A DNA stretch of 64,000 nt from assembly GCA_938002085.1 (NCBI GenBank), contig CALLAT010000074.1:21173-85172 (forward strand). The letters are read 5' to 3'. Below the pieces are notes generated by a model. The model was not told where the DNA came from. It searched no databases and worked only from the letters and a program-made list of their open reading frames with translations. The DNA comes from an uncultured Pseudanabaenaceae cyanobacterium (GTDB lineage Bacteria > Cyanobacteriota > Cyanobacteriia > PCC-9006 > JAAUQQ01). The position numbers and the translations under genes were made by a program. Shown here piece by piece: positions 2,640 to 59,431 of the stretch. Each line of letters opens with the position of its first letter. Within the stretch, counting starts at the first letter, position 1.

Positions 2640-5600
2640 TTAAGCGGTTTCAACGGCACAGGAAGGTGATTCAGAGGCTTCAGAATCAGCTCCCTCAATT
2701 TGGCGTTGATATTGCTCTAGCTCAAGGGTCAAAGCCAACTCCAATCGCTGGGTTTCGTGCTTCAAACGAGCTTCTAGCTCTGGATAATCAGGGTGCTCGC
2801 TGCGGGCTTCTGTCTCTAGCAATCGGCAAACCTCACTCAGATCGGCGCCCCCTTGATTGCCCACAAAGGACTTGAAATGATGGGCTAGCTGGAACACCTC
2901 CTCATGGCTGTGGGTGGCGATCGCCGCCTCAAGCTCAACCTGATGCCCTGGCCAATCCTGGAGAAAGGCCTGGATACTCTCCACAATTTTGGGAGCCGCT
3001 TTATCCCCATAAAGGGTGTGATAGGTATTAAACAAATACCGCTTCTCCAAGACCGCTGGAGTGACCTCGTTGGATGGAGGCGTTGCAGTGGGACTCAATG
3101 GCTGAGACCCAACAGCCTCCTTACCCTGCGCTGGCGTTAGCCTTTCCTCAACCACTTGCCCAGCCATCCCATGTGATTCAAACCAGTCACGGAATAGGGA
3201 TTCCAACATTTCCAGGCTAATGGGCTTCTGGAGAATTTGATCCATGCCAGACGTTGCGAACTCATCGGAGCCTTCGGCGATCGCAGTCCCCGTCACCCCA
3301 ACAATAAAAGGTTGAGACGAGTCGTCATAAAGCGCTCTAATCTGCTGCACGGCCTTAGGCCCAGTCAATCCAGGCATCTGGAAATCCAGCATCAACAAGT
3401 CATAGGCCACGGCTTTACAGGCTTCTACCGCCTCCAATCCGTTGCTCACGATACAGGCCTGATGGCCCAAATAGGTCAGCATTTCCTGCATGACCCGTTG
3501 GTTACTCAGTTCATCTTCAGCCACCAAAATATTCAACAGAGCCGGTGCCGTTTTAGGTCGGACTGACGTATCTGCATCAGCTCCAGCAGCAGAGGCGATC
3601 GCCACTTTGGCTGCCATCGCAACAGATTCTGAACCCCCATTAGCATCAGCCACAGCACCATCGGCATAGCGGTAGCGAACACCAAGATGCTTGGCCAATG
3701 TCTCGACTAAATCTTGCTCCTGAAATGGCTTACGCACAAAGTCATCACAACCTGCCTCTAAGGCGATCTGATGATCCTCTTCAAAAGCATTTGCAGTTAG
3801 CGCTACGATAACGGGCGGATGCTCCTGGGCCAAGGCTTTAATTTTCCGCGTGGCCGCATACCCATCCATCACAGGCATGCGCATATCCATCCAAATCAGC
3901 GCAGGCGACCAAGTTTGCCATTGTTGAATGGCTTCCTGGCCATTAACAGCTTCCCGTACCTCAAAGCCAAGGTCTAACAGTAAGTCAACCAACAAGAGAC
4001 GATTGACCGCCTTATCTTCAACGACGAGAATTTTAGGCGTCGGCTGGTCAGGCGCTAAGCCCATCACCTGCCTAGCAGGAGCAACCATCTTTTCATTTTG
4101 GGCTTGGGCCGCGCGACCGGCCTGAATCGAGAAGTGGAAGCTAGAACCAACTCCCACCTCACTTTCCACAGAAATATTGCCTCCCATCAACTCAATAAAC
4201 TGCCGACAAATGGTGAGGCCTAATCCTGTACCTTCATGGGAATCTACGCCGGCTTGGGTTTGGGCAAAGGCTTCAAAAATGATGCCCAACTCTTCAGATG
4301 CGATACCCGGTCCTGTATCTTGCACCGAAAAATTGAGCGTGAGATTCCCAGCGCTATCGTCTTCTTCTGAGGAATCCACAGCACAGCTCACCGAAGACTT
4401 CAGTGTCACTGAGCCCTTCTCGGTAAACTTCAGCGCATTACCGAGCAAGTTAATCAAGATCTGCCTTAACTTCCCCTCATCAGCCACAACATACTCAGGT
4501 AAGTCATTGGCCAGTTCAAACTTCAGCGAGATCTGCTTAGAGATTGCAGTATTTTCTAGCATGTCCTCTAAAGTACTGAGGAAAACCGGCAGATGAATGA
4601 GATTGTCTTCTAATTGGGCTTCTCCGGCCTCGATTCGAGACATGGCTAGCACCCCATTAATCAGCGACAGTAAGTGCTCTCCACTTTGGCCAATCGTATT
4701 CAATCTTTGACACTGTTGCTCCGTCAACGATGCATCTCGATTCAACAGTTGGGCCATGCCCAAAATGGCATTCAATGGTGTGCGGAGTTCATGGCTCATA
4801 GTGGCCAGAAAGCGGCTCTTAGCCTGACTTGCAGAGTCTGCAGCCTGGCGAGCGGCCTCAGTCTCACTGAGAAACTTAGCTTGTTGAATTGCTATGCCTA
4901 ACTGAGTTGCAATTTGTCTCGTCAACTCCTTCTCTTTCTCATTCCAAAAACGCGGACCTGAGCATTGATGAATACAAACCAATCCCCAAAGGGTTTCTCC
5001 ATCAAAGAGGGGAGCCACTAAATTGGCCTTAATTTCAAATTTCTGCAGCATCTCCCGATAGCAGCTTTGAGCCTCAGCCTGCTCGACATCATTGATAAAG
5101 TAGATCTGCTCTTGAGTCTTCTGATTTTTATACTTATCGTCAAAAAAACAAGGCTCTTCGATAAACTGATTTAAAGCCGCAGGATAATCTCCCTCCACAT
5201 CTTCGGCCACAACTTTTCCTGCCTTATAGTCTTGACTCGGCAAGAATCTAAAGATCGCGACTCGATCAGCATTTAGTAATCGGCGTAGCTCACTTGTGGT
5301 GGTGGTAAAGATCGTCGTGAGTTCCAGTGAATCTCGGATCTTCTTAATCACCGTATTGAGAATTCTCTGCTGTTCTGCTGCCGAAGCCAGCGCTTCAGAT
5401 TGAAGTTTGACTTTTTCAATTGACTGGCTTTGCTGGAGCGCAACCCCCAGGTGAGTCGCCACTTGAGAGAGGAAAGAAACTTCTGATTCTTCCCAGGTTC
5501 TAACACGCTCATGCTGATAAGCTCCCAGCAATCCCCAGAGTTTCTGGTCCACAAAGAGGGGAGCAATCATATAGGCCTGAACACAGTAATGTTCTAGGAC

Positions 5601-7400
5601 TTCGATATGGCAAGGAGAGAGCTCTGAATTATGGACATCATGAATGACAGAGATTTTCCCATCTCGATATTGAGACCCCTTGGTCTCTTGCATATAGGAG
5701 TCATTCCATCTCTTTCGAGTAGCTAGAATCGTATCCTTCCAGCCCACACTGACAGTGCCAAATTCATCGACAAACTCTCCTCCCCAGTCTGGGTCGAAGC
5801 GAAAGACTGCAACGCGGTCCACTTTCAACAACTGCTGCATCTCTTGGGTGGCAGTCTTGAATAAGTCGCGCATTTCCAGGGGCTTCTGGAGTTTTGCCAG
5901 AATATTCGCGAGGGTCCGTTGCTGATTGGCGATCACGGTCGAATGCTCCAGCTCTACCGTGCGAATACGCACTTGCCGCTCTAGGTTGCTATTGAGCGCC
6001 TGGACCTGTTGATTGAGCTGGAACTGCTTCACTGCCACAGAAAAGCGTTCTCCCAGAGAGCGAATGAGGCGCTGTTCCACATCAGTCCATTTCTGAGCTT
6101 GCCCTTGCATCACTTGCCGCCAAGCATCAAAGGATTGGCGAGGAGCCAACTGGCGCTCATCCGGCGCGTGATAACCAGCCCAGGTAATTTCCTGATCGAT
6201 GGCATCACGGAAAATGGTCAGGCAGCCAATCAAGCTTCCACCATAATGGAGTGGACAAATGAGGAGACCTCGCACATCCGTTTCTTGAAAGTGGGGGGAG
6301 ACCGATCGCAAAAGCGGCTCTTTATACAAGTCTGCGATCGCCCAAACCCTGGGCGACTCCCCGACGACGGAATGGGCCAAGGGATCTTGGGCATAGGTCG
6401 TCTTCATCCAAGCCACAGACCAGGGCTCTAGTTGCTCAGACTCTGCACTCCGATTCAATGTGGACAGCAAATACCGCTGCCAAATTTGATGCTCTTCTAC
6501 GAGACGGAGCTGCCCTCCCACATCACCTGGCAAGAGCGTGGGTTGACTACCCACCTGATACACCGTCGGGGGCTGATGAGCATTGGCTCCAAATAGATAT
6601 AGACGTCCACCCGAACCTTGATACACCGCCACAGTTTCATTCAGGGCTTGTTGCAACTGCACCTGAGCGGGCGTATATAAAAGCGCGGTCACCCGATTAA
6701 GCTCAGCCTCTAAACGGGCCTGTTCTCGCACCTTCTCCAACAGCACAGACTGGGAGATGGCCACAGAGACCTGATCCACCACCAGCTGAATAAAATCCAG
6801 TTCTGCTGCCGATACCGTTCGAGGTTGAGCGTTGTGAGAGATCAGGAGCCCCCACAACTTGCCGACTTTAGGTTGACCCGTCTCTTCTTGGGCAACTGCT
6901 CCAGATTGTTCCAAAACGATGGGAACCACGACGGAAGATTGGACCCCCATAGCCAGTAGGTACTCTAAATGGCAGGGGTCAATCCTACGAGTGCTCAACT
7001 GGGTATAAACCCAAGCAGAGCAGGATTTTTCAGGATCTAACTGGCTCGTAAAAACAGATTTTTTGTCAATTTCAACAATCGTTCGCTGCCGCTGCTGTAA
7101 GAGCAGCTCACGGGTGTAGGGAGGAATATCATCAACGGGAAAATGCAGGCCTTTAAGGGGAGGCAGGTTCTCTGCATTTAGGGCTTCTGCAATCACCCAG
7201 CCATGGCCATCGGGTAAAAACTGATAGATTTCGACGCGATCCGTTGCGAGGTAATCTCGAACTTCCGCCACTGTGGTGGAGAGGATTGCTGGCAGATCGA
7301 GGGAATTTCGAATTCGGTTGGTAATCCGATTCAGCAAAAGTTGTTCCGACGTCCCCGTAGAGGCGGACCGGACGAAATTGGAGAAACTATGCTGATTCAT
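2640..7400 (-). CDS. Multi-GAF phytochrome-like hybrid sensor histidine kinase (GAF-PHY, GAF, GAF, HisKA-HATPase, REC, REC, HPt)
   Basis: 1586-aa ORF with ATG at 7400. Motifs read by eye: phytochrome GAF (HFPVDDIPPYTREL; DPCHLEYLLAMGVQSSVVVPI); PHY tongue (WAG...PRQSF); two further GAFs (DRVAVFRFDPDWGGEFV...SPCHIEVLEHYCVQAYMIAPLF; DRVAIFRF...SCYREMLQKFEIKANLVAPLF); H-box MSHELRTPLNAILG; ATPase boxes GNALKFT, DTGPGI, GTGLGL; two receivers (ILVVEDKAVNR...MDMRMPVMDG; ILVAEDELSNQ...LDFQMPGLTG); HPt-like QLAHHFKSFVGNQG. Confidence 0.9.
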   Translation of the reverse strand: MNQHSFSNFVRSASTGTSEQLLLNRITNRIRNSLDLPAILSTTVAEVRDYLATDRVEIYQFLPDGHGWVIAEALNAENLPPLKGLHFPVDDIPPYTRELLLQQRQRTIVEIDKKSVFTSQLDPEKSCSAWVYTQLSTRRIDPCHLEYLLAMGVQSSVVVPIVLEQSGAVAQEETGQPKVGKLWGLLISHNAQPRTVSAAELDFIQLVVDQVSVAISQSVLLEKVREQARLEAELNRVTALLYTPAQVQLQQALNETVAVYQGSGGRLYLFGANAHQPPTVYQVGSQPTLLPGDVGGQLRLVEEHQIWQRYLLSTLNRSAESEQLEPWSVAWMKTTYAQDPLAHSVVGESPRVWAIADLYKEPLLRSVSPHFQETDVRGLLICPLHYGGSLIGCLTIFRDAIDQEITWAGYHAPDERQLAPRQSFDAWRQVMQGQAQKWTDVEQRLIRSLGERFSVAVKQFQLNQQVQALNSNLERQVRIRTVELEHSTVIANQQRTLANILAKLQKPLEMRDLFKTATQEMQQLLKVDRVAVFRFDPDWGGEFVDEFGTVSVGWKDTILATRKRWNDSYMQETKGSQYRDGKISVIHDVHNSELSPCHIEVLEHYCVQAYMIAPLFVDQKLWGLLGAYQHERVRTWEESEVSFLSQVATHLGVALQQSQSIEKVKLQSEALASAAEQQRILNTVIKKIRDSLELTTIFTTTTSELRRLLNADRVAIFRFLPSQDYKAGKVVAEDVEGDYPAALNQFIEEPCFFDDKYKNQKTQEQIYFINDVEQAEAQSCYREMLQKFEIKANLVAPLFDGETLWGLVCIHQCSGPRFWNEKEKELTRQIATQLGIAIQQAKFLSETEAARQAADSASQAKSRFLATMSHELRTPLNAILGMAQLLNRDASLTEQQCQRLNTIGQSGEHLLSLINGVLAMSRIEAGEAQLEDNLIHLPVFLSTLEDMLENTAISKQISLKFELANDLPEYVVADEGKLRQILINLLGNALKFTEKGSVTLKSSVSCAVDSSEEDDSAGNLTLNFSVQDTGPGIASEELGIIFEAFAQTQAGVDSHEGTGLGLTICRQFIELMGGNISVESEVGVGSSFHFSIQAGRAAQAQNEKMVAPARQVMGLAPDQPTPKILVVEDKAVNRLLLVDLLLDLGFEVREAVNGQEAIQQWQTWSPALIWMDMRMPVMDGYAATRKIKALAQEHPPVIVALTANAFEEDHQIALEAGCDDFVRKPFQEQDLVETLAKHLGVRYRYADGAVADANGGSESVAMAAKVAIASAAGADADTSVRPKTAPALLNILVAEDELSNQRVMQEMLTYLGHQACIVSNGLEAVEACKAVAYDLLMLDFQMPGLTGPKAVQQIRALYDDSSQPFIVGVTGTAIAEGSDEFATSGMDQILQKPISLEMLESLFRDWFESHGMAGQVVEERLTPAQGKEAVGSQPLSPTATPPSNEVTPAVLEKRYLFNTYHTLYGDKAAPKIVESIQAFLQDWPGHQVELEAAIATHSHEEVFQLAHHFKSFVGNQGGADLSEVCRLLETEARSEHPDYPELEARLKHETQRLELALTLELEQYQRQIEGADSEASESPSCAVETA

Positions 7401-53367: not shown

Positions 53368-55092
53368 ATGCCGGTCCCAGAGCAACCCACTTCAGCGGAT
53401 AGCAATGCTATTCCACCCAGCCCCTCGAATGGCAATGACTCAGATACTGTCGCCGCAGAGGAAGCAACGGCAGATAGCAATGTCAGTCTGCCCCTGGAAG
53501 TCATTATCGATTTAGCGGCGCATTTACAAACCCAAGGCATTGAACTCGCAGCACCGAGCCCTCCGCCTCAGCTCAAACTGGACCTGCTAGGCGAGGGAGC
53601 GACCCTCTCTGTTACAACCAGCAAGCTTGAAGCAGATTTAGATAGTGAAGGCTCAGCAGGGGGGGATGAGGATGATGAGATCGCCCCCCTAATCGAACCC
53701 AGCAGCAATCTTACAGAGCAATCAGAAGACCCCGAAGCCGAGTCAGCAGATCTCGCGGAAGAGGAAGACTTCGAAGACGACACCGCCGAGCTCCTCCCCG
53801 GCATTACCCTTACCCCAGAACAGCAGCAAGCCCTACAAACCCTCGAAACCTTCCTCGAAAGCGGCGACAAAATCCACCTGCTCACAGGCTACGCGGGCAC
53901 CGGCAAAACCACCCTGCTCCAAGCCCTGCTCATCCACCTGCAAAACAACGGCGACAAACGCCCCATCGTCTTCACCGCCCTGAGTAACAAGGCCACCAAA
54001 GTCCTCGCCACCATGGCAGAGCATTGGGATCTTAAGGTGGACTGCCTCACCTGTTGCCGCCTCCTAGGCCTCCAACCCAAGATCGACAAGGAAACTGGCC
54101 AGCAAAAATTCACCGCAGATCGCAAGGGCAAACGCTTAATCAACCGCTATCGCCTCGTGGTGGTGGACGAATGCTCCATGATCAACCAGGAGATGTGGGA
54201 GCTACTGGTCAAAGCCGTTTCCCGTTTAGACGACAAGACGCAGCTGTTATTCGTTGGGGATGAGGCTCAGCTGCCCCCCGTGGGCGAGACGGCCTCGCCC
54301 TGTTTTGAGCAAATCTATGACCGCACGGCCCTGACGGAGGTGGTGCGCTACGGCGGCGCCATTGGTTTACTGGCGGAGGATGTACGCCGCAACCTGGACC
54401 GGCCGATGATGCCCCGGTGGGAAAGCGATCGCAGCGAGGACAACACCCAAGGCACCTTCATCCTGCCGTCCCAACAATGGGACAAGCTACTCCTGCGAGC
54501 CTTCACCAGCGACTCCTATGGCCAGGACCCAGACCAAGTGCGCGTCCTGGCCTACACCAACCGCCGCGTCCAGCAACTCAACCAGCGCATCCGCGCCGCC
54601 ATCTACGGCTCCGACGCCGCCCAGTTTGTTGTCGGGGAGCGCCTGATGGCCAATAGCCCCTGCCTGATTGATGACAACCAAATCATTTTGCAAACCTCGG
54701 AGGAATGCAAGGTCTTGGATGCCTACATCGACCAGAGCGATGACCCCGTGATGCTGGAACGCTGGCAGGTTTGGAAGATGGAGATTGTCACCGAAGCTGG
54801 GCTGTACCGAGAGCTTCGCGTCCTCCACGGTAATGAGAAAAAACGCTTTGACAAGGCTTTGAAGGGACTGGCAGATAGCAAAAGCTGGAAAGCTTTTTGG
54901 GAGTTAAAGCAATATTTCCATGAGCTTAACTACGCCTACAGCCTCACCGTTCACAAGAGCCAGGGGTCAACCTTCCAAGATGTCTTTGTAGACTTGCGAA
55001 ACCTGATGATTAATCGAAAGATAACGGAGCGAAATCAACTCTGTTACGTGGCTTTTACTAGGGCAGCCAACAGGCTCTTTCTATACCAGTAA
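53368..55092 (+). CDS. SF1B RecD/Dda-like DNA helicase with ~150-aa acidic N-terminal extension
   Basis: 574-aa ORF with ATG at 53368. Walker A LTGYAGTGKTTLL, Walker B LVVVDECSMI, FVGDEAQLPPV, and the C-terminal YSLTVHKSQGSTF...CYVAFTRA (UvrD_C_2-like). Confidence 0.85.
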   Translation: MPVPEQPTSADSNAIPPSPSNGNDSDTVAAEEATADSNVSLPLEVIIDLAAHLQTQGIELAAPSPPPQLKLDLLGEGATLSVTTSKLEADLDSEGSAGGDEDDEIAPLIEPSSNLTEQSEDPEAESADLAEEEDFEDDTAELLPGITLTPEQQQALQTLETFLESGDKIHLLTGYAGTGKTTLLQALLIHLQNNGDKRPIVFTALSNKATKVLATMAEHWDLKVDCLTCCRLLGLQPKIDKETGQQKFTADRKGKRLINRYRLVVVDECSMINQEMWELLVKAVSRLDDKTQLLFVGDEAQLPPVGETASPCFEQIYDRTALTEVVRYGGAIGLLAEDVRRNLDRPMMPRWESDRSEDNTQGTFILPSQQWDKLLLRAFTSDSYGQDPDQVRVLAYTNRRVQQLNQRIRAAIYGSDAAQFVVGERLMANSPCLIDDNQIILQTSEECKVLDAYIDQSDDPVMLERWQVWKMEIVTEAGLYRELRVLHGNEKKRFDKALKGLADSKSWKAFWELKQYFHELNYAYSLTVHKSQGSTFQDVFVDLRNLMINRKITERNQLCYVAFTRAANRLFLYQ

Positions 55093-55478: not shown

Positions 55479-56291
55479 CTACCAAAGACCACGAACAGGC
55501 TCAGAGACAGGTTCAGAAGAGAACTCAGGCTCCTCTACAGCATTATTCAGCATTGGTGCTTCCGCAGTGGCAGCAGGCTCGATGGGCTCGACAGCCTGAA
55601 ACACTGCAGCTTCGGATTCAGCAGCAGCCATGTCATCGGCAGCCATGTCATCGGCAGCCATGTCATCAGCAACCATATCGTCAGCAGCCATAGGCTCTGC
55701 ATCGTCAGCAGCCAAGCGATTTGCCAGTTCGGTCGCCACAGATTCAGGCACCAGCACCTGATCGATCACATGGATAACGCCATTGCTACCCTGCACATCA
55801 GCCCGGAGGACCTGGGCATCGTTAACCATCACGCCGTCAGTGGAAACATCAACCATCAAGTTTCCAGCCAAGGTCTCAACATCACCTGTGCTCAGGTCAG
55901 ATGACAGCACTCCACCTTCAACAACGTGATAGACCAAAACTTGAGTCAACAAATCCTTGTTCTCAGGCTCCAGCAGAGCTTCTAAGACACCTGCAGGCAA
56001 GGCGTCAAAGGCTTCGTCAATGGGAGCAAAGACCGTTAGGGGGCCTTCACCAGAAAGCGCATCCACGAGGTCAGCAGCCTGAAGGGCGGTGACGAGGGTA
56101 TCAAAGGCTCCTGCACTGGTTGCAATATCAACAATGGAAGGCGCGCCTTGGGCAACTTGCTCGGTTACGGCACCGGCTTCAGTGGCTTCAATTTGAGCAT
56201 GGGACGCAGAAGAGAGACCTGTACCCAATGCGATGCTTGCACCACACAAGCTAATCGCGAGAAATTTCAAACCGTTGAGTGAAGAAGTCAT
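55479..56291 (-). CDS. Secreted fasciclin (FAS1) domain protein with acidic Met/Asp-repeat C-terminal tail
   Basis: 270-aa ORF with ATG at 56291. Signal peptide [21 protein letters not shown]1 motifs [30 protein letters not shown] and [12 protein letters not shown]. The tail reads [25 protein letters not shown]. Confidence 0.88.
55624..55692. repeat. 15-nt tandem repeat (about 4.5 units) inside the fasciclin gene
   Basis: Units gcagccatgtcatcg / gcagccatgtcatcg / gcagccatgtcatca / gcaaccatatcgtca / gcagccata... They encode (A/V)ADDM repeats on the minus strand. Confidence 0.85.
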
Positions 56292-56922
56292 ATCGATTTC
56301 GCTGCTGTGTGTTTTCGTAACTGGAGCGATACTATCAGCAATCCAATCGAAAAATCTCTTAATAACTACACATATATGAATTTCAAAACATCCGGAACAA
56401 GCATTTTTGCTTTTCGTCCTGGCGATGTTTTAAGGAATAAATTCCTATTTTCGTCTATTCAGAAACTTTTATTGGAAGTACACGTCTCCCACCGGGTTTA
56501 GCAGAACTGACAAAATCGTTAAATCTGACACTTATGGCAAAGGCTTATTTGTTGAGAGATTTGCAAGGAATATCACAGGCCAACAGCTGTAGCTGCCAAA
56601 AGCCAATGATCTCTCTAATCTCATGGAAAATGCGACAGCATTCAGCGTAGCCCCCCAAGAATCATCAACTATTTCCCAAGCCAGTCCTCCGGTGAAAGAC
56701 CCGTTTGGCGTTACGAGCCACATCAATATAGAGGTGCCTCCTTTAAAGCCTCGTAAAGCTGCCTAACATTATGCTGCGATCGCTTGCTCCCCCTATTCTT
56801 GGCTTTGTAACATCAGCGACAGAATAAGAAGTGCATTGCTCAACCGCATCAGTCCCTTGCTGCTGTTTTCTTCCAGCAACAGTCGACCGGCGCAATGCCC
56901 GCTTCAACCCAGAGGTTTTGCC

Positions 56923-57165
56923 ATGGCTGTCGCCCAATCCCGTCTAACATCCCCCCATCCCGTTCGAGAAGGTCAGAGTTACCAGTACCATTGGTGCTCT
57001 CGCCAAGAATTAGCTGCGGGACGATGGGTCAGCCTCATCAAGCTGCCTAGCCCCATGAGTGACGACGAGGCATTACTCCTTTGTGAGGAAGAGGGCGACC
57101 GCTGGCTTGTCTGGGTTCCTAACCATGGCGAAGCCATTATCGATACCCACAGCTTTGCCTGCTGA
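56923..57165 (+). CDS. Small hypothetical protein (80 aa)
   Basis: The ORF track gives 56836..57165. The ATG at 56923 gives MAVAQSRLTSPHPVREGQSYQYHWCS... A strong terminator follows. No family recognised. Confidence 0.5.
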   Translation: MAVAQSRLTSPHPVREGQSYQYHWCSRQELAAGRWVSLIKLPSPMSDDEALLLCEEEGDRWLVWVPNHGEAIIDTHSFAC

Positions 57166-57193
57166 AGCCCATTTAAGGTTACGAACAGCAAAA

Positions 57194-57228
57194 AGCCAGG
57201 AAGACTTGATTGTCTTCCTGGCTTTTTT
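57194..57228. terminator. Bidirectional rho-independent terminator between convergent genes
   Basis: agccaggaagac (57194-57205), loop ttgatt, gtcttcctggct (57212-57223). The 12-bp stem is perfect, with aaaa upstream and ttttt downstream. Confidence 0.85.
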
Positions 57229-57272
57229 AATAGATGGGAGGCAGCAGCCAACCAAACTGGACGCCCATTACT

Positions 57273-59222
57273 CTATTCGCCATCCCCTTGGGGCTGACTG
57301 ACTGGCTGGGCATTCGATTGATTGCGCAATACTGGCTTAGCACCACCTCCAGTGGCAGGTTTACGCCTGCCAAATTTTCCGCCCTGGAAGTCACCGCTTT
57401 TAAAGCTAGGGCGACTCGATCGCCCACCGGCAAACTTTCGCTCCCCGCCGAATTTGCGATCGCTAAACTTACCGCCGGAAGGACGCTCATCAAAGCGCCT
57501 CGCCTTGCGATAGCGCTCACCACCGGAATAGGACGGAGCCGATGAAGTAGAACCGGCATCACCCTCTCGCAACGCAGGCTTAGGAATAAACCGCTTGCCC
57601 CCAGAGGACTGACCTCCAAACTTTTTGCCACCAAATTTCTGGCCGCCGAACTTATTGCCGCCAAACTTGGGCGCACCAAATTTCTTACCCCCCAATCGCG
57701 GCTTGCCATGAGATAAGCGGGGTTGAGGGGTGCGAGAACCACCACGAGAATCGCTACGGCCATAGCGCTGCTGAGGTCTTGGGCTAGGGCTGTGGCGAGG
57801 CTCAGGCTGATCCCACCAGCGACCTTCCATGGAAGATTCACTCGATTCGGAGGGTGTAAACCGTGACTCGCGGTTGTCTCGGCTGTCCCGCTGCTGGGGC
57901 TTGAAGGAATCTCTCCCTCGCCTCTGATCTGACCCCGTTCTTAAGCGCGGAGAGGCATTAGAGCTGGAGCGGTCCCTCGATTGTCCTCCTGCCAACTTAG
58001 GCTTTTCGCCTGAGGCGGTTCGAGGGGAGGGAGTCGGCGAGTAGTTAAAGGAGGGAGCATCTTGCCGCTTGGCTTCAAACCGAGACCCATTCGCCCTAGC
58101 TCGCAGGGGACCCATTTCATTGGGACCGGGACGGAAATTGCTGCCGCTGTCCTTACGGCCCTTGAAGGCAGCACCTTTGGCACCGCGCTCGGGCTTACCG
58201 CCTCGGGCAAACTTGCGCTCGCCCCCATCTCGGCCCCCTCTTTGGTCTCGGCCGCCGCGTCCATCCCGTCCACTTCTGCCATCTCGCCCATCCCGTCCGG
58301 GGCGCTCATGTCGCCCACCCTCTGAGGCCTGCCCCTTCTTGGAGAAATCGACTGCGGGTGTGGAAACCTTGCGACGGAAGAAGGCCGCATGGAGCGATCG
58401 CTTGGGTTTCGCATCCCCTGCTTCAGCGGTTGCTCCCTCAGCATCCGTCGCTTCCACCGCAGCAACCGTCTCAACCACAGGCGCATCTAACCTAGCCTGG
58501 GTCACTTGCCGATGCTGCTGCTTGAGATTACTTTCTGCGGCTTCAATCAGCACCACAGCTTGGGTGACAAATTCTTCAATCGTCTGAACCAAGATGGGCT
58601 GGCCACTGGTCTCCTCCTTTTGGACAAAGTAAGGGGGCTGCTGCAACCGCGCCTTGGCAAAGCCAAATTTAATCGCTTCCAGGGCTTCAGTTGTTTTAGC
58701 AACCCAGTCCGCATCGACTCCCGGCTTGGGGACAGACTGCCACAGGCCAGGCGCCACTTGGGTGGACTCGCTCAAACGCTCCAGGGACTGCTTCAGCTTC
58801 GTGATGCGGTTCTCTAAGCTAATTAAGGTGGTGCGAGTCAGCTCTAGCTCGGCGGTATCTTGGATCGCTTCTAGAGTCGTTAGGGTAATGCTGGTGCTGC
58901 GGGCCGCTTTGGTGGCCCCGCTGTCGAAGCCCGCATTGGAAAGCATTAGGGCGCGATCGCCCTTCACGTCCTTCATCACCTGTTTCAAGGCAAATACATC
59001 GGCCTTGGTGACCGGCGTATCCCAATGGCGACAGTCAATAATGCAGCGCGTCTTCACGCCGTACTGCTCGGCTTGCAGCCAAACATCAATACGGTGGTCG
59101 CCTCGGTTTCCCTCCACCGTCTTTTCCACTGCGACCTGACAGTCCAGCACCTCAAAGGGGAGTGCTGCGGCCTGTTTATAAGCTTTCCAATCCACGGGTC
59201 TCGTTCCTGCGCTGCTTGCCAT
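57273..59222 (-). CDS. Mrr_cat/PD-(D/E)xK restriction-endonuclease-like N-terminal domain fused to a helical linker and a ~380-aa Arg/Gly/Lys/Ser-rich low-complexity tail
   Basis: 649-aa ORF with ATG at 59222. N-terminus HRIDVWLQAEQYGVKTRCIIDCRHWDTPVTKADVFALKQVMKDVKGDRALMLSNAGFDSGA matches the Mrr_cat layout. The tail holds GRDGRDGRSGRDGRGGRDQRGGRDGG and KFGAPKFGGNKFGGQKFGGKKFGG repeats. Confidence 0.8.
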   Translation of the reverse strand: MASSAGTRPVDWKAYKQAAALPFEVLDCQVAVEKTVEGNRGDHRIDVWLQAEQYGVKTRCIIDCRHWDTPVTKADVFALKQVMKDVKGDRALMLSNAGFDSGATKAARSTSITLTTLEAIQDTAELELTRTTLISLENRITKLKQSLERLSESTQVAPGLWQSVPKPGVDADWVAKTTEALEAIKFGFAKARLQQPPYFVQKEETSGQPILVQTIEEFVTQAVVLIEAAESNLKQQHRQVTQARLDAPVVETVAAVEATDAEGATAEAGDAKPKRSLHAAFFRRKVSTPAVDFSKKGQASEGGRHERPGRDGRDGRSGRDGRGGRDQRGGRDGGERKFARGGKPERGAKGAAFKGRKDSGSNFRPGPNEMGPLRARANGSRFEAKRQDAPSFNYSPTPSPRTASGEKPKLAGGQSRDRSSSNASPRLRTGSDQRRGRDSFKPQQRDSRDNRESRFTPSESSESSMEGRWWDQPEPRHSPSPRPQQRYGRSDSRGGSRTPQPRLSHGKPRLGGKKFGAPKFGGNKFGGQKFGGKKFGGQSSGGKRFIPKPALREGDAGSTSSAPSYSGGERYRKARRFDERPSGGKFSDRKFGGERKFAGGRSSRPSFKSGDFQGGKFGRRKPATGGGAKPVLRNQSNAQPVSQPQGDGE

Positions 59223-59431
59223 CGCTAGCGTTGGGGGCGCTCTCGTGGCTTCTATTTATTCAGACTATCACCCCCCCTTGGGGAAGCAGCAACCGAGGCT
59301 TTTAATGAAGTAACTGTTATAAAAACAGCACCTTAATATACGAATGTCACCGAATCCACGAAGCTACGGCAGGGATTGAGCGGCTCAAATTAGAACGGTT
59401 TGCCACTCGGCAGAGTTGCGACTGGGTGTGG

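Follow-up and report, generated by a model that had tools for sequence, protein, structure and literature searches.

A remodelled Mrr-type nuclease fold joined to a conserved polycationic tail in an uncultured Pseudanabaenaceae cyanobacterium

INTRODUCTION

What a restriction-endonuclease fold with an altered active site is doing at the head of a long, basic, low-complexity tail is the question raised by one gene in a 64,000 nt stretch of DNA from an uncultured Pseudanabaenaceae cyanobacterium (contig CALLAT010000074.1, positions 21,173 to 85,172 of the forward strand), hereafter referred to as the window. The gene, open reading frame (ORF) 57273..59222 on the minus strand of the window, encodes a protein of 649 aa. 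A first-pass annotation, made from the sequence of the window alone, had described it as an Mrr/PD-(D/E)xK-like nuclease domain with arginine at the position of the catalytic lysine, followed by a helical linker and a eukaryote-style RGG tail. In the canonical PD-(D/E)xK site, an Asp on strand 2 acts with a Glu-x-Lys motif on strand 3 and, in many cases, with a Glu supplied by helix 1 (PMC3424549). Basic tails are a known attribute of bacterial nucleic-acid enzymes: the disordered C-terminal extensions of RhlE helicases provide most of their RNA affinity and drive clustering (PMC11260450), and the tails of RNase E are disordered scaffolds with conserved microdomains (PMC4435900).

The protein consists of an Mrr-type domain and a helical/beta-hairpin domain, both of the kind found in a tail-less family, and a tail of ~380 aa with a charge of about +50. 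Judged from sequence comparison, one small lineage, traced to the Pseudanabaenaceae, acquired the tail, all three parts are under constraint, and the gene occupies a stable locus with its own terminator. We propose, at a probability of about 0.45, that an accessory nuclease has here been domesticated and now serves as a housekeeping or stress factor associated with nucleic acid, to which its basic disordered tail tethers it. Coordinates of the gene and its parts are collected in Table 1; those given in the first-pass annotation for D46, D63-C64-R65, the RDG/RGG block (aa 308-333) and the KFGG block (aa 514-537) were all reproduced.

Table 1. Features of the tailed nuclease-fold gene and its product, in window coordinates
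Feature	Position	Strand	Evidence or remarks
Whole coding sequence	57273..59222	-	649 aa; ORF list; five full-length orthologue clusters, 61-94% identity
Mrr-type PD-(D/E)xK nuclease-fold domain, aa 10-116	58875..59195	-	Pfam, AF2, Foldseek
E24, helix 1 (Arg in the family)	59151..59153	-	R 103/155, E 11/155; E invariant in tail clade
D46, first catalytic-motif Asp, beta-strand 2	59085..59087	-	D in 153/155, gap in 2; model strand E33-44
D63-C64-R65 (E-C-K position of the family), end of beta-strand 3	59028..59036	-	E 142/155, K 146/155
N96 and D100, after beta-strand 4 (Glu and Gln in the family)	58923..58937	-	E 119/155, Q 146/155; N and D invariant in tail clade
Family-specific middle domain, aa 117-246	58485..58874	-	Three long helices and two beta-hairpins; AF2 pLDDT 95-98
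Short acidic Ala/Glu/Thr linker, aa 247-270	58413..58484	-	Variable among orthologues
Polycationic, predicted intrinsically disordered tail, aa 271-649 (379 aa)	57276..58412	-	Composition, charge-hydropathy plot, dN/dS
Island 1, tail start: AKPKRSLHAAFFRRKVSTPAV	58350..58412	-	Nearly invariant in six sequences
RDG/RGG repeat block, aa 308-333	58224..58301	-	Least conserved tail segment; large indels
Island 2: NFRPGPNEMGP	58107..58139	-	
Island 3: TASGEKPKLAG	57987..58019	-	
Island 4: ESSMEGRWWDQPE	57801..57839	-	Only Trp pair of the tail; M-E-G-R-W-W-D invariant in six sequences
KFGG tandem repeats, aa 514-537	57612..57683	-	Copy number varies among orthologues
Island 5: KRFIPKPALR	57567..57596	-	K543, F545, P547, P549, L551 and R552 invariant
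Stop codon	57273-57275	-	
Intrinsic-terminator-like hairpin and T-run	57190..57228	-	45 nt past stop

RESULTS AND DISCUSSION

The folded N-terminal module

The Mrr/PD-(D/E)xK fold claimed for the N terminus was borne out by Pfam, AF2 and Foldseek. Pfam Mrr_cat (PF04471) aligns to aa 11-121 through positions 5-112 of its 115-position profile, scoring 42.9 bits (E = 6e-11; cutoff 21). An AlphaFold2 (AF2) model of aa 10-250, built on an alignment of 75 family members, reaches a predicted local distance difference test score (pLDDT) of 97.1 and a predicted template modelling score (pTM) of 0.84, and has the topology alpha-beta-beta-beta-alpha-beta (H3-16, E20-28, E33-44, E47-56, H64-77, E81-86); an earlier run with the six close orthologues only had left the nuclease domain at pLDDT 30-45 and was unusable. 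In a Foldseek search of the PDB the best match to the model was AF1548 (1Y88; 1.3e-7); the Mrr-like catalytic domains of MspJI, AspBHI and EcoT38I came next, with Can2, Cdn1, Cap4, FokI and RPB5-type domains also among the fold matches; among viral models, phage 'restriction endonucleases' were matched. Profile and structure model together thus confirm the predicted PD-(D/E)xK fold. Searches by sequence yielded less, in that phmmer of aa 1-260 against PDB sequences gave no match, a profile search of the same sequences gave only spurious coiled-coil and repeat matches, and tblastn against phage genomes gave no match.

With the Mrr_cat enzymes, including MspJI, AspBHI and EcoT38I, and with AF1548 the protein shares the fold, its topology, the first Asp and the (D/E)-x-K position on strand 3. 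It differs from Mrr- and MspJI-type enzymes in lacking an N-terminal DNA-recognition domain (no winged helix, SRA or similar domain reading DNA modification was found with Pfam, NCBIfam or PADLOC), in having D-x-R in place of E/Q-x-K together with four further changes in the core, and in adding a family-specific helical domain and a basic disordered tail of 380 aa; its gene, moreover, lies on the chromosome in conserved synteny and is under strong constraint. The sole PADLOC match, PDC-S02 (E = 0.0028), covers 74 residues of the nuclease core and is not significant.

The segment that had been taken for a helical linker (aa 117-246) is not a linker: three long helices and two beta-hairpins are predicted there with pLDDT >95, and the domain so formed is common to a family of tail-less proteins. 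It has no PDB counterpart by fold or sequence, the fold search giving nothing below E = 0.2. When a profile of aa 10-289 was run exhaustively with HMMER against 1.84 billion representatives, 1536 matches were obtained, of which the best 150 were inspected; the survey was confined to this subfamily of Mrr_cat proteins. After the orthologues, the best matches are proteins of 226-256 aa that cover profile positions 1-230 (E = 1e-31 to 6e-53) and then end. Because the middle domain is common to the whole of this parent family, the ancestral unit is the pair of domains. The stand-alone proteins of ~235 aa have the same two-domain core at 25-37% identity and share H43, D46, C64, W67 and K73 with the window protein, but they have canonical E-C-K, lie in accessory or mobile contexts, and end at ~235 aa or, in a minority, carry acidic helical extensions to ~340-350 aa. 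No polycationic tail was seen in the best 150 of the 1536 members.

Remodelling of the active site

Active-site positions were counted in 155 aligned sequences, the window protein included. A ten-position signature, R-H-D-E-C-K-W-K-E-Q, is exact in 68 of these, and most of the others show single-site variants; the six tail-bearing proteins read E-H-D-D-C-R-W-K-N-D and so differ at five of the ten positions. Arg65 does stand at the lysine of the family's E-x-K motif, as had been noted at first pass, but it is not an isolated change, being one of five coordinated replacements: R24E in helix 1, E63D and K65R in strand 3, and E96N and Q100D after strand 4. The combination E-D-R-N-D is confined to the tail clade, where all five residues are invariant, and D63 together with R65 occurs only in the six tail-bearing proteins; Lys is replaced by Arg in one other family member (P0074), and Glu by Asp alone in a few. 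Retained in the tail clade are H43, D46, C64, W67 and K73. Of the canonical triad D...(D/E)-x-K, D46 is present and the second motif reads D63-C64-R65, and because Arg here replaces Lys we describe the protein as a member of the fold and family with a non-canonical site. A review of PD-(D/E)xK active-site variants (PMC3424549) makes no mention of arginine. The Mrr_cat score is 43 bits, as against 61-66 bits in the nearest tail-less relatives.

Such remodelling could be a sign that the fold is catalytically dead and serves only as a nucleic-acid-gripping or oligomerization module. The protein would then be nucleoid-associated, act as an RNA chaperone or form the scaffold of a ribonucleoprotein condensate, with its tail islands recruiting partner enzymes. 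There are precedents, since inactive restriction-endonuclease folds are reused for binding elsewhere (RPB5-type domains, which are among our fold matches, and Pfam NA-iREase1), and RAP domains are RNA-binding PD-(D/E)xK folds (PMC8190603); like these modules, the ORF protein has a PD-(D/E)xK fold with a non-canonical site that may be reused for binding, and the conservation of charge and composition in the tail while its sequence drifts, together with a layout like that of the RNase E and RhlE scaffold tails, would suit the role. Unlike them, the ORF protein keeps acidic and basic residues at all the catalytic positions, and the former catalytic positions are all invariant, with chemically competent side chains. 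Nor are there co-located partner genes for a scaffold to recruit. The NA-iREase1 profile was considered as a sign of inactivity and rejected as such, because the window protein scores 13 bits, below threshold, and canonical E-x-K relatives score higher, at 18-25 bits. We regard a dead scaffold as unlikely, although the sequence by itself is compatible with either a 're-tuned' or a 'dead' site.

Translation and conservation of the tail

Two candidate start codons nine codons apart, ATG at 59222 and GTG at 59195, are both conserved, and the latter would yield a protein of 640 aa. In comparisons among the orthologues (Nei-Gojobori), the ratio of non-synonymous to synonymous substitution rates (dN/dS) is 0.06-0.14 in the N-terminal 260 aa and 0.19-0.23 in the tail, at dS values of up to ~1.9 (0.9-1.9 for the tail). 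The same frame is open to the same C terminus in all six orthologues through many indels, and whole-codon gaps suffice in their protein-guided alignment. The hairpin that follows the stop codon, rather than preceding the tail, has a 16-bp stem that is kept, with a differing loop sequence, among the window and the orthologous loci L001 and L002, and its 93-nt context has a folding energy of -40.6 kcal/mol; an automated terminator scan missed it, as it falls outside the stem and loop limits of that scan.

With dN/dS at ~0.2, no orthologue interrupting the frame and a conserved terminator just beyond the stop codon, we conclude from these comparisons that the tail is translated. That it might instead be an annotation artefact (low-complexity sequence that is not translated, a pseudogene with a frameshift, or repeats that form an open frame by chance) is suggested by the GC-rich, repetitive nature of the DNA, by long ORFs open in three other frames and by the origin of all the sequences in metagenome assemblies, but with the constraint on the annotated frame, the codon-sized gaps, the invariant peptide islands and the position of the terminator all against it, we consider this explanation effectively refuted. 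The ORFs 57227..57841, 57941..58486 and 58069..58587, which had been called repeat shadows, lie in other frames of this coding sequence; as the annotated frame is translated under constraint, shadows is what they are taken to be, and there is no evidence for them as genes. The survey of orthologues thus found the tail present in every one, translated and constrained.

Upstream of the gene, a consensus promoter scan gave no match. A perfect palindrome, CTGTT-TTTAT-AACAG (59314-59328, minus strand), lies ~100 nt upstream of the start codon within a conserved block (59302-59332); the window, L001 and L002 all keep it and L003 keeps most of it, and it could be an operator or promoter element.

Composition of the tail

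The description of the tail as poor in hydrophobic residues and built from repeats held. Over aa 271-649 its composition is G 17%, R 15%, S 12%, P 9%, K 8% and F 6%, with Ile, Leu, Val, Met, Trp and Cys (ILVMWC) together at 4.5%; its net charge is +52 and its isoelectric point (pI) 11.6, and a charge-hydropathy plot places it deep in the disordered field. Among the 23 ATG-started window ORFs of at least 300 aa it is a clear outlier, with the lowest ILVMWC fraction per 300 aa (0.037; next lowest 0.16, median 0.25) and a maximum net charge of +43, as against no more than +6 in the others. By Tandem Repeats Finder, the KFGG array has a period of 15 and 3.5 copies (57616-57668), and the RDG periodicity is weaker; orthologue P0001 has one KFGG unit more than the window protein. 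The tail is preceded by the linker, whose columns are poorly conserved; the block aa 241-270 has a net charge of -6, and in the six-orthologue AF2 run the linker had pLDDT <40, the nuclease domain being low there as well.

In the six orthologues the tail varies in length from 336 to 395 aa, with a net charge of +45 to +55, a pI of 11.5-11.9, a composition of G 14-19%, R 11-15%, K 8-10% and ILVMWC 4-7%, and 4-9 (K/R)(F/L)G motifs per tail. Five short islands are nearly invariant in the six sequences: AKPKRSLHAAFFRRKVSTP, FRPGPNEMGP, SGEKPKL, MEGRWWDQPE and KRFIPKPALR. As far as alignment can tell, the conserved features are therefore charge, a composition rich in G, R, K, S, P and F, the (K/R)FG motifs and the five islands. 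The RGG motifs are not among them. The window protein has four, clustered at aa 322-342, and there are 2-10 RGG-type motifs among the six orthologues, in the least conserved segment of the tail. 'Eukaryote-style RGG' was thus right as to the presence of RGG and FGG in the composition and overstated as to its importance. With eukaryotic RGG/GAR (glycine- and arginine-rich) and FG domains, such as those of nucleolin, fibrillarin and FUS-type proteins, the tail shares richness in Gly, Arg and Phe, RGG and FGG tripeptides and a scarcity of aliphatic residues, but Lys, Ser and Pro are as prominent in it as Arg and Gly, and no homology was detected, so the likeness is convergent in composition at most.

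The other likeness that had been suggested, to bacterial tails, is at least as close in layout. In RhlE1, RhlE2 and RNase E (its non-catalytic region), too, a nucleic-acid enzyme bears a long C-terminal extension that is basic, disordered, fast-evolving and specific to a clade, and in which short conserved microdomains lie within low-complexity sequence. They differ in that their catalytic module is a RecA-like helicase or RNase E/G and not a PD-(D/E)xK fold, and word-index searches found no sequence similarity to the tail, which makes this an analogy and not membership. Island 1 and other tail segments were also considered as an amphipathic membrane anchor like segment A of RNase E; this was rejected by shuffled controls, since the maximum hydrophobic moment in the tail (0.74) lies below the mean for shuffled tails (0.80) and no segment is more amphipathic than these.

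Distribution and origin of the gene

Full-protein, N-terminal and tail-profile searches recovered the tail-bearing form only as the window protein and five clusters. Three of the tail-bearing loci come from metagenome-assembled genomes of uncultured Pseudanabaenaceae (CALECT01, CALIGI01 and CALLPZ01), the others from metagenome assemblies. Word-index searches with the full protein and with the tail profile (8000 candidates scored in each) found no relative of the tail outside this clade, and scans of metagenome and viral contigs for the patterns MEGRWWD, HAAFFRRK, DWKAYK and IDCRHWD found no further relatives; a word-index search with aa 10-290 missed orthologues of 84-96% identity that the full-length query had found, and its negatives are accordingly to be read with caution. 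Within the limits of these searches, the tail does not appear to be a mobile module carried by other proteins. The statement that fusion of such a tail to a restriction-endonuclease fold was not known also stood, as no other protein of this kind was found in the databases searched, including the best 150 of the 1536 family matches, and searching the literature for Mrr_cat combined with disorder, or for iREase, was unproductive.

Members of the parent family are annotated as 'restriction endonuclease', for example WP_051441399.1 (Agrobacterium plasmid pAlCFBP5473) and WP_004150874.1 (Klebsiella). Where the context could be read, their genes stand alone in variable accessory neighbourhoods of plasmids, integrative and conjugative elements and chromosomes: beside a HigB/HigA-like pair, near a second Mrr_cat gene or among hypothetical genes. 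On the Agrobacterium conjugative plasmid the gene follows PfkB-kinase and QueC-like genes beside an IS3 element and an integrase, and the Klebsiella member lies in an integrative-element region, between insertion sequences and a SymE toxin gene. Among catalogued defence systems, PADLOC gave the parent family only weak matches restricted to the core (PDC-S02 and the Mrr-like domain of ZorD), and NCBIfam gave none.

The tail-bearing gene, by comparison, lies in what is otherwise an ordinary cyanobacterial chromosome (phosphoenolpyruvate carboxylase, a phytochrome-class hybrid kinase, glycosyl hydrolases). It is flanked upstream by a gene for a large secreted-type protein and downstream by genes for a fasciclin protein, a RecD-like helicase and DAGK, and this downstream order is kept in four genomes, namely the window, L001, L002 and L012 (67% identity). 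Since synteny goes together with low dN/dS, the gene looks like a resident, vertically inherited one, unlike the genes of the parent family in their accessory settings.

It is against this background that an active enzyme has to be weighed, that is, a solitary, type IV-like restriction or defence nuclease of the Mrr family in which the tail stands in for the missing DNA-recognition domain, keeping the enzyme on the nucleoid or on DNA that enters the cell, and D-x-R is a functional variant. The Mrr_cat match is above the Pfam cutoff, the metal-ligand Asp is kept while the other substitutions are conservative, helix 1 has gained a Glu at a place from which an acidic residue often takes part in the active site (PMC3424549), the structural neighbours MspJI, AspBHI and EcoT38I are modification-dependent restriction enzymes, and relatives stand in accessory, defence-like neighbourhoods. 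A stable, syntenic, vertically inherited locus with dN/dS of 0.06-0.14 is nevertheless unlike a fast-turnover defence gene, and five near-invariant positions have been replaced together, with a drop in the Mrr_cat score; in addition, arginine is absent from the reviewed variants, and catalogued defence systems offer nothing beyond the weak, domain-level PADLOC match. We hold an active defence nuclease to be rather doubtful.

Two members of the parent family deserve separate mention. P0063 (463 aa, from an NCBI source) has a family-type Mrr_cat domain with canonical E-C-K fused to a full AAA_35 ATPase (E = 1e-98), which shows that the same nuclease core also serves as effector of a conflict system of the nucleoside-triphosphatase type. 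In L010 (positions 4206-6705; Agrobacterium larrymoorei pAlCFBP5473) the tail-less member overlaps the end of the QueC-like (7-cyano-7-deazaguanine synthase) gene, and PfkB-family kinase, QueC-like gene and tail-less member look like a three-gene operon, which may be a deazaguanine-linked defence or modification module.

Possible function of the tailed protein

If an accessory nuclease was indeed domesticated, as we propose, the tail would bind polyanions strongly, multivalently and without sequence specificity, RNA or DNA being the most likely ligand. Docking or self-association would fall to the five islands, as it does to motifs in the tails, likewise non-catalytic, of RNase E and RhlE. The folded N-terminal module, tethered to nucleic acid by the tail, would perform an altered, probably attenuated or re-specified, phosphodiesterase chemistry, or might simply grip its substrate.

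A number of points weigh against this proposal. The replacements of Glu by Asp and of Lys by Arg preserve carboxylate and cationic chemistry, and since they are conservative, D46, H43, C64, W67 and K73 are retained and a Glu has been gained in helix 1, the module may still be an active nuclease. Binding of nucleic acid by the tail is something that we infer, and so basic a tail could have a different polyanionic ligand (polyphosphate, acidic proteins or membranes, for example). The function of the parent family comes from annotation alone and is tied to no catalogued defence system, our view of that family is drawn from the best 150 of its 1536 matches, and the gene neighbourhood of the tailed form offers no functional clue.

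The choice of ligand can be taken further. Were the tail to bind polyphosphate granules, anionic membranes or acidic proteins such as the helicase encoded nearby, the nuclease module would be localized or regulated by sequestration; a tail charge of +45 to +55, the acidic linker preceding the tail and the acidic N-terminal extension (net charge -34 in the window) of the syntenic RecD-like helicase would all be compatible with this. The acidity of that extension is poorly conserved (-34 in the window; -35, -18 and -15 in orthologues), the helicase gene is on the opposite strand with another gene in between, and nothing in the hydrophobic moment points to a membrane anchor. As the tail is fused to a nucleic-acid enzyme fold, the simplest ligand is nucleic acid, and we consider a different one very improbable.

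A more elaborate possibility is that the protein forms the core of a membraneless nucleic-acid body, in which the tail would condense with RNA or DNA, islands such as MEGRWWDQPE and KPKRSLHAAFFRRK would recruit clients and D-x-R would confer a new, regulated RNA- or DNA-processing activity. It would then be a scaffold analogous to RNase E in bacterial ribonucleoprotein bodies (BR-bodies), but built on a PD-(D/E)xK fold. We view this as speculative and distinctly unlikely.

Taken singly, the components are of known kinds, the Mrr_cat fold on the one hand and, on the other, the disordered basic tails of nucleic-acid enzymes in bacteria; their combination, together with a five-residue rewriting of the catalytic core, was not found elsewhere in very large databases, the best 150 of the 1536 family matches having been inspected. 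The tail clade is tiny and uncultured, which limits the impact of the finding. Should the domestication that we propose be correct, the locus would be a natural example of a mobile, defence-type nuclease becoming a resident cellular factor, by settling at a fixed chromosomal locus, rewriting five positions of its catalytic centre at once and gaining a long, charged, disordered tail de novo. A PD-(D/E)xK enzyme would thereby join RNase E, RhlE and the few other bacterial proteins whose disordered basic tails organize nucleic-acid metabolism. Tail-less P0006, with E-x-K, and the tailed D-x-R form make a tractable pair for asking what the tail contributes.

Neighbouring genes

The window gave no Rfam match and contains no tRNA. 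The RecD/Pif1-like superfamily 1 helicase (53368-55092, plus strand; AAA_30, UvrD_C_2) has an acidic, low-complexity N-terminal extension of ~145 aa and is syntenic with the tail gene in L001, L002 and L012; the idea that it is a charge-complementary partner of the tail was not upheld, the acidity not being conserved, and is a loose one only. Low-complexity extension is also seen in the fasciclin-domain protein (55479-56291, minus strand), which has a signal-peptide-like N terminus and a C-terminal acidic repeat of five (A)ADDM units. Convergent with the tail gene, and ending near the shared hairpin terminator, is a small ORF (56836-57165, plus strand) whose product would be 109 aa long if started at TTG and ~80 aa if started at an internal Met; it has no Pfam match and shows codon-like conservation with L001 and L002, and is probably a real, small, conserved hypothetical gene. 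Between it and the fasciclin gene (56292-56700, viewed on the minus strand; alignment columns ~590-720) an insertion of ~100 nt, bordered by well-conserved non-coding blocks, sets the window apart from L001 and L002. Elsewhere in the window, a hybrid sensor kinase of 1586 aa (2640-7400, minus strand) combines PHY, multiple GAF, HisKA/HATPase, two receiver and Hpt domains; by this domain content it is a photoreceptor of the phytochrome/cyanobacteriochrome class, consistent with the cyanobacterial origin of the DNA.

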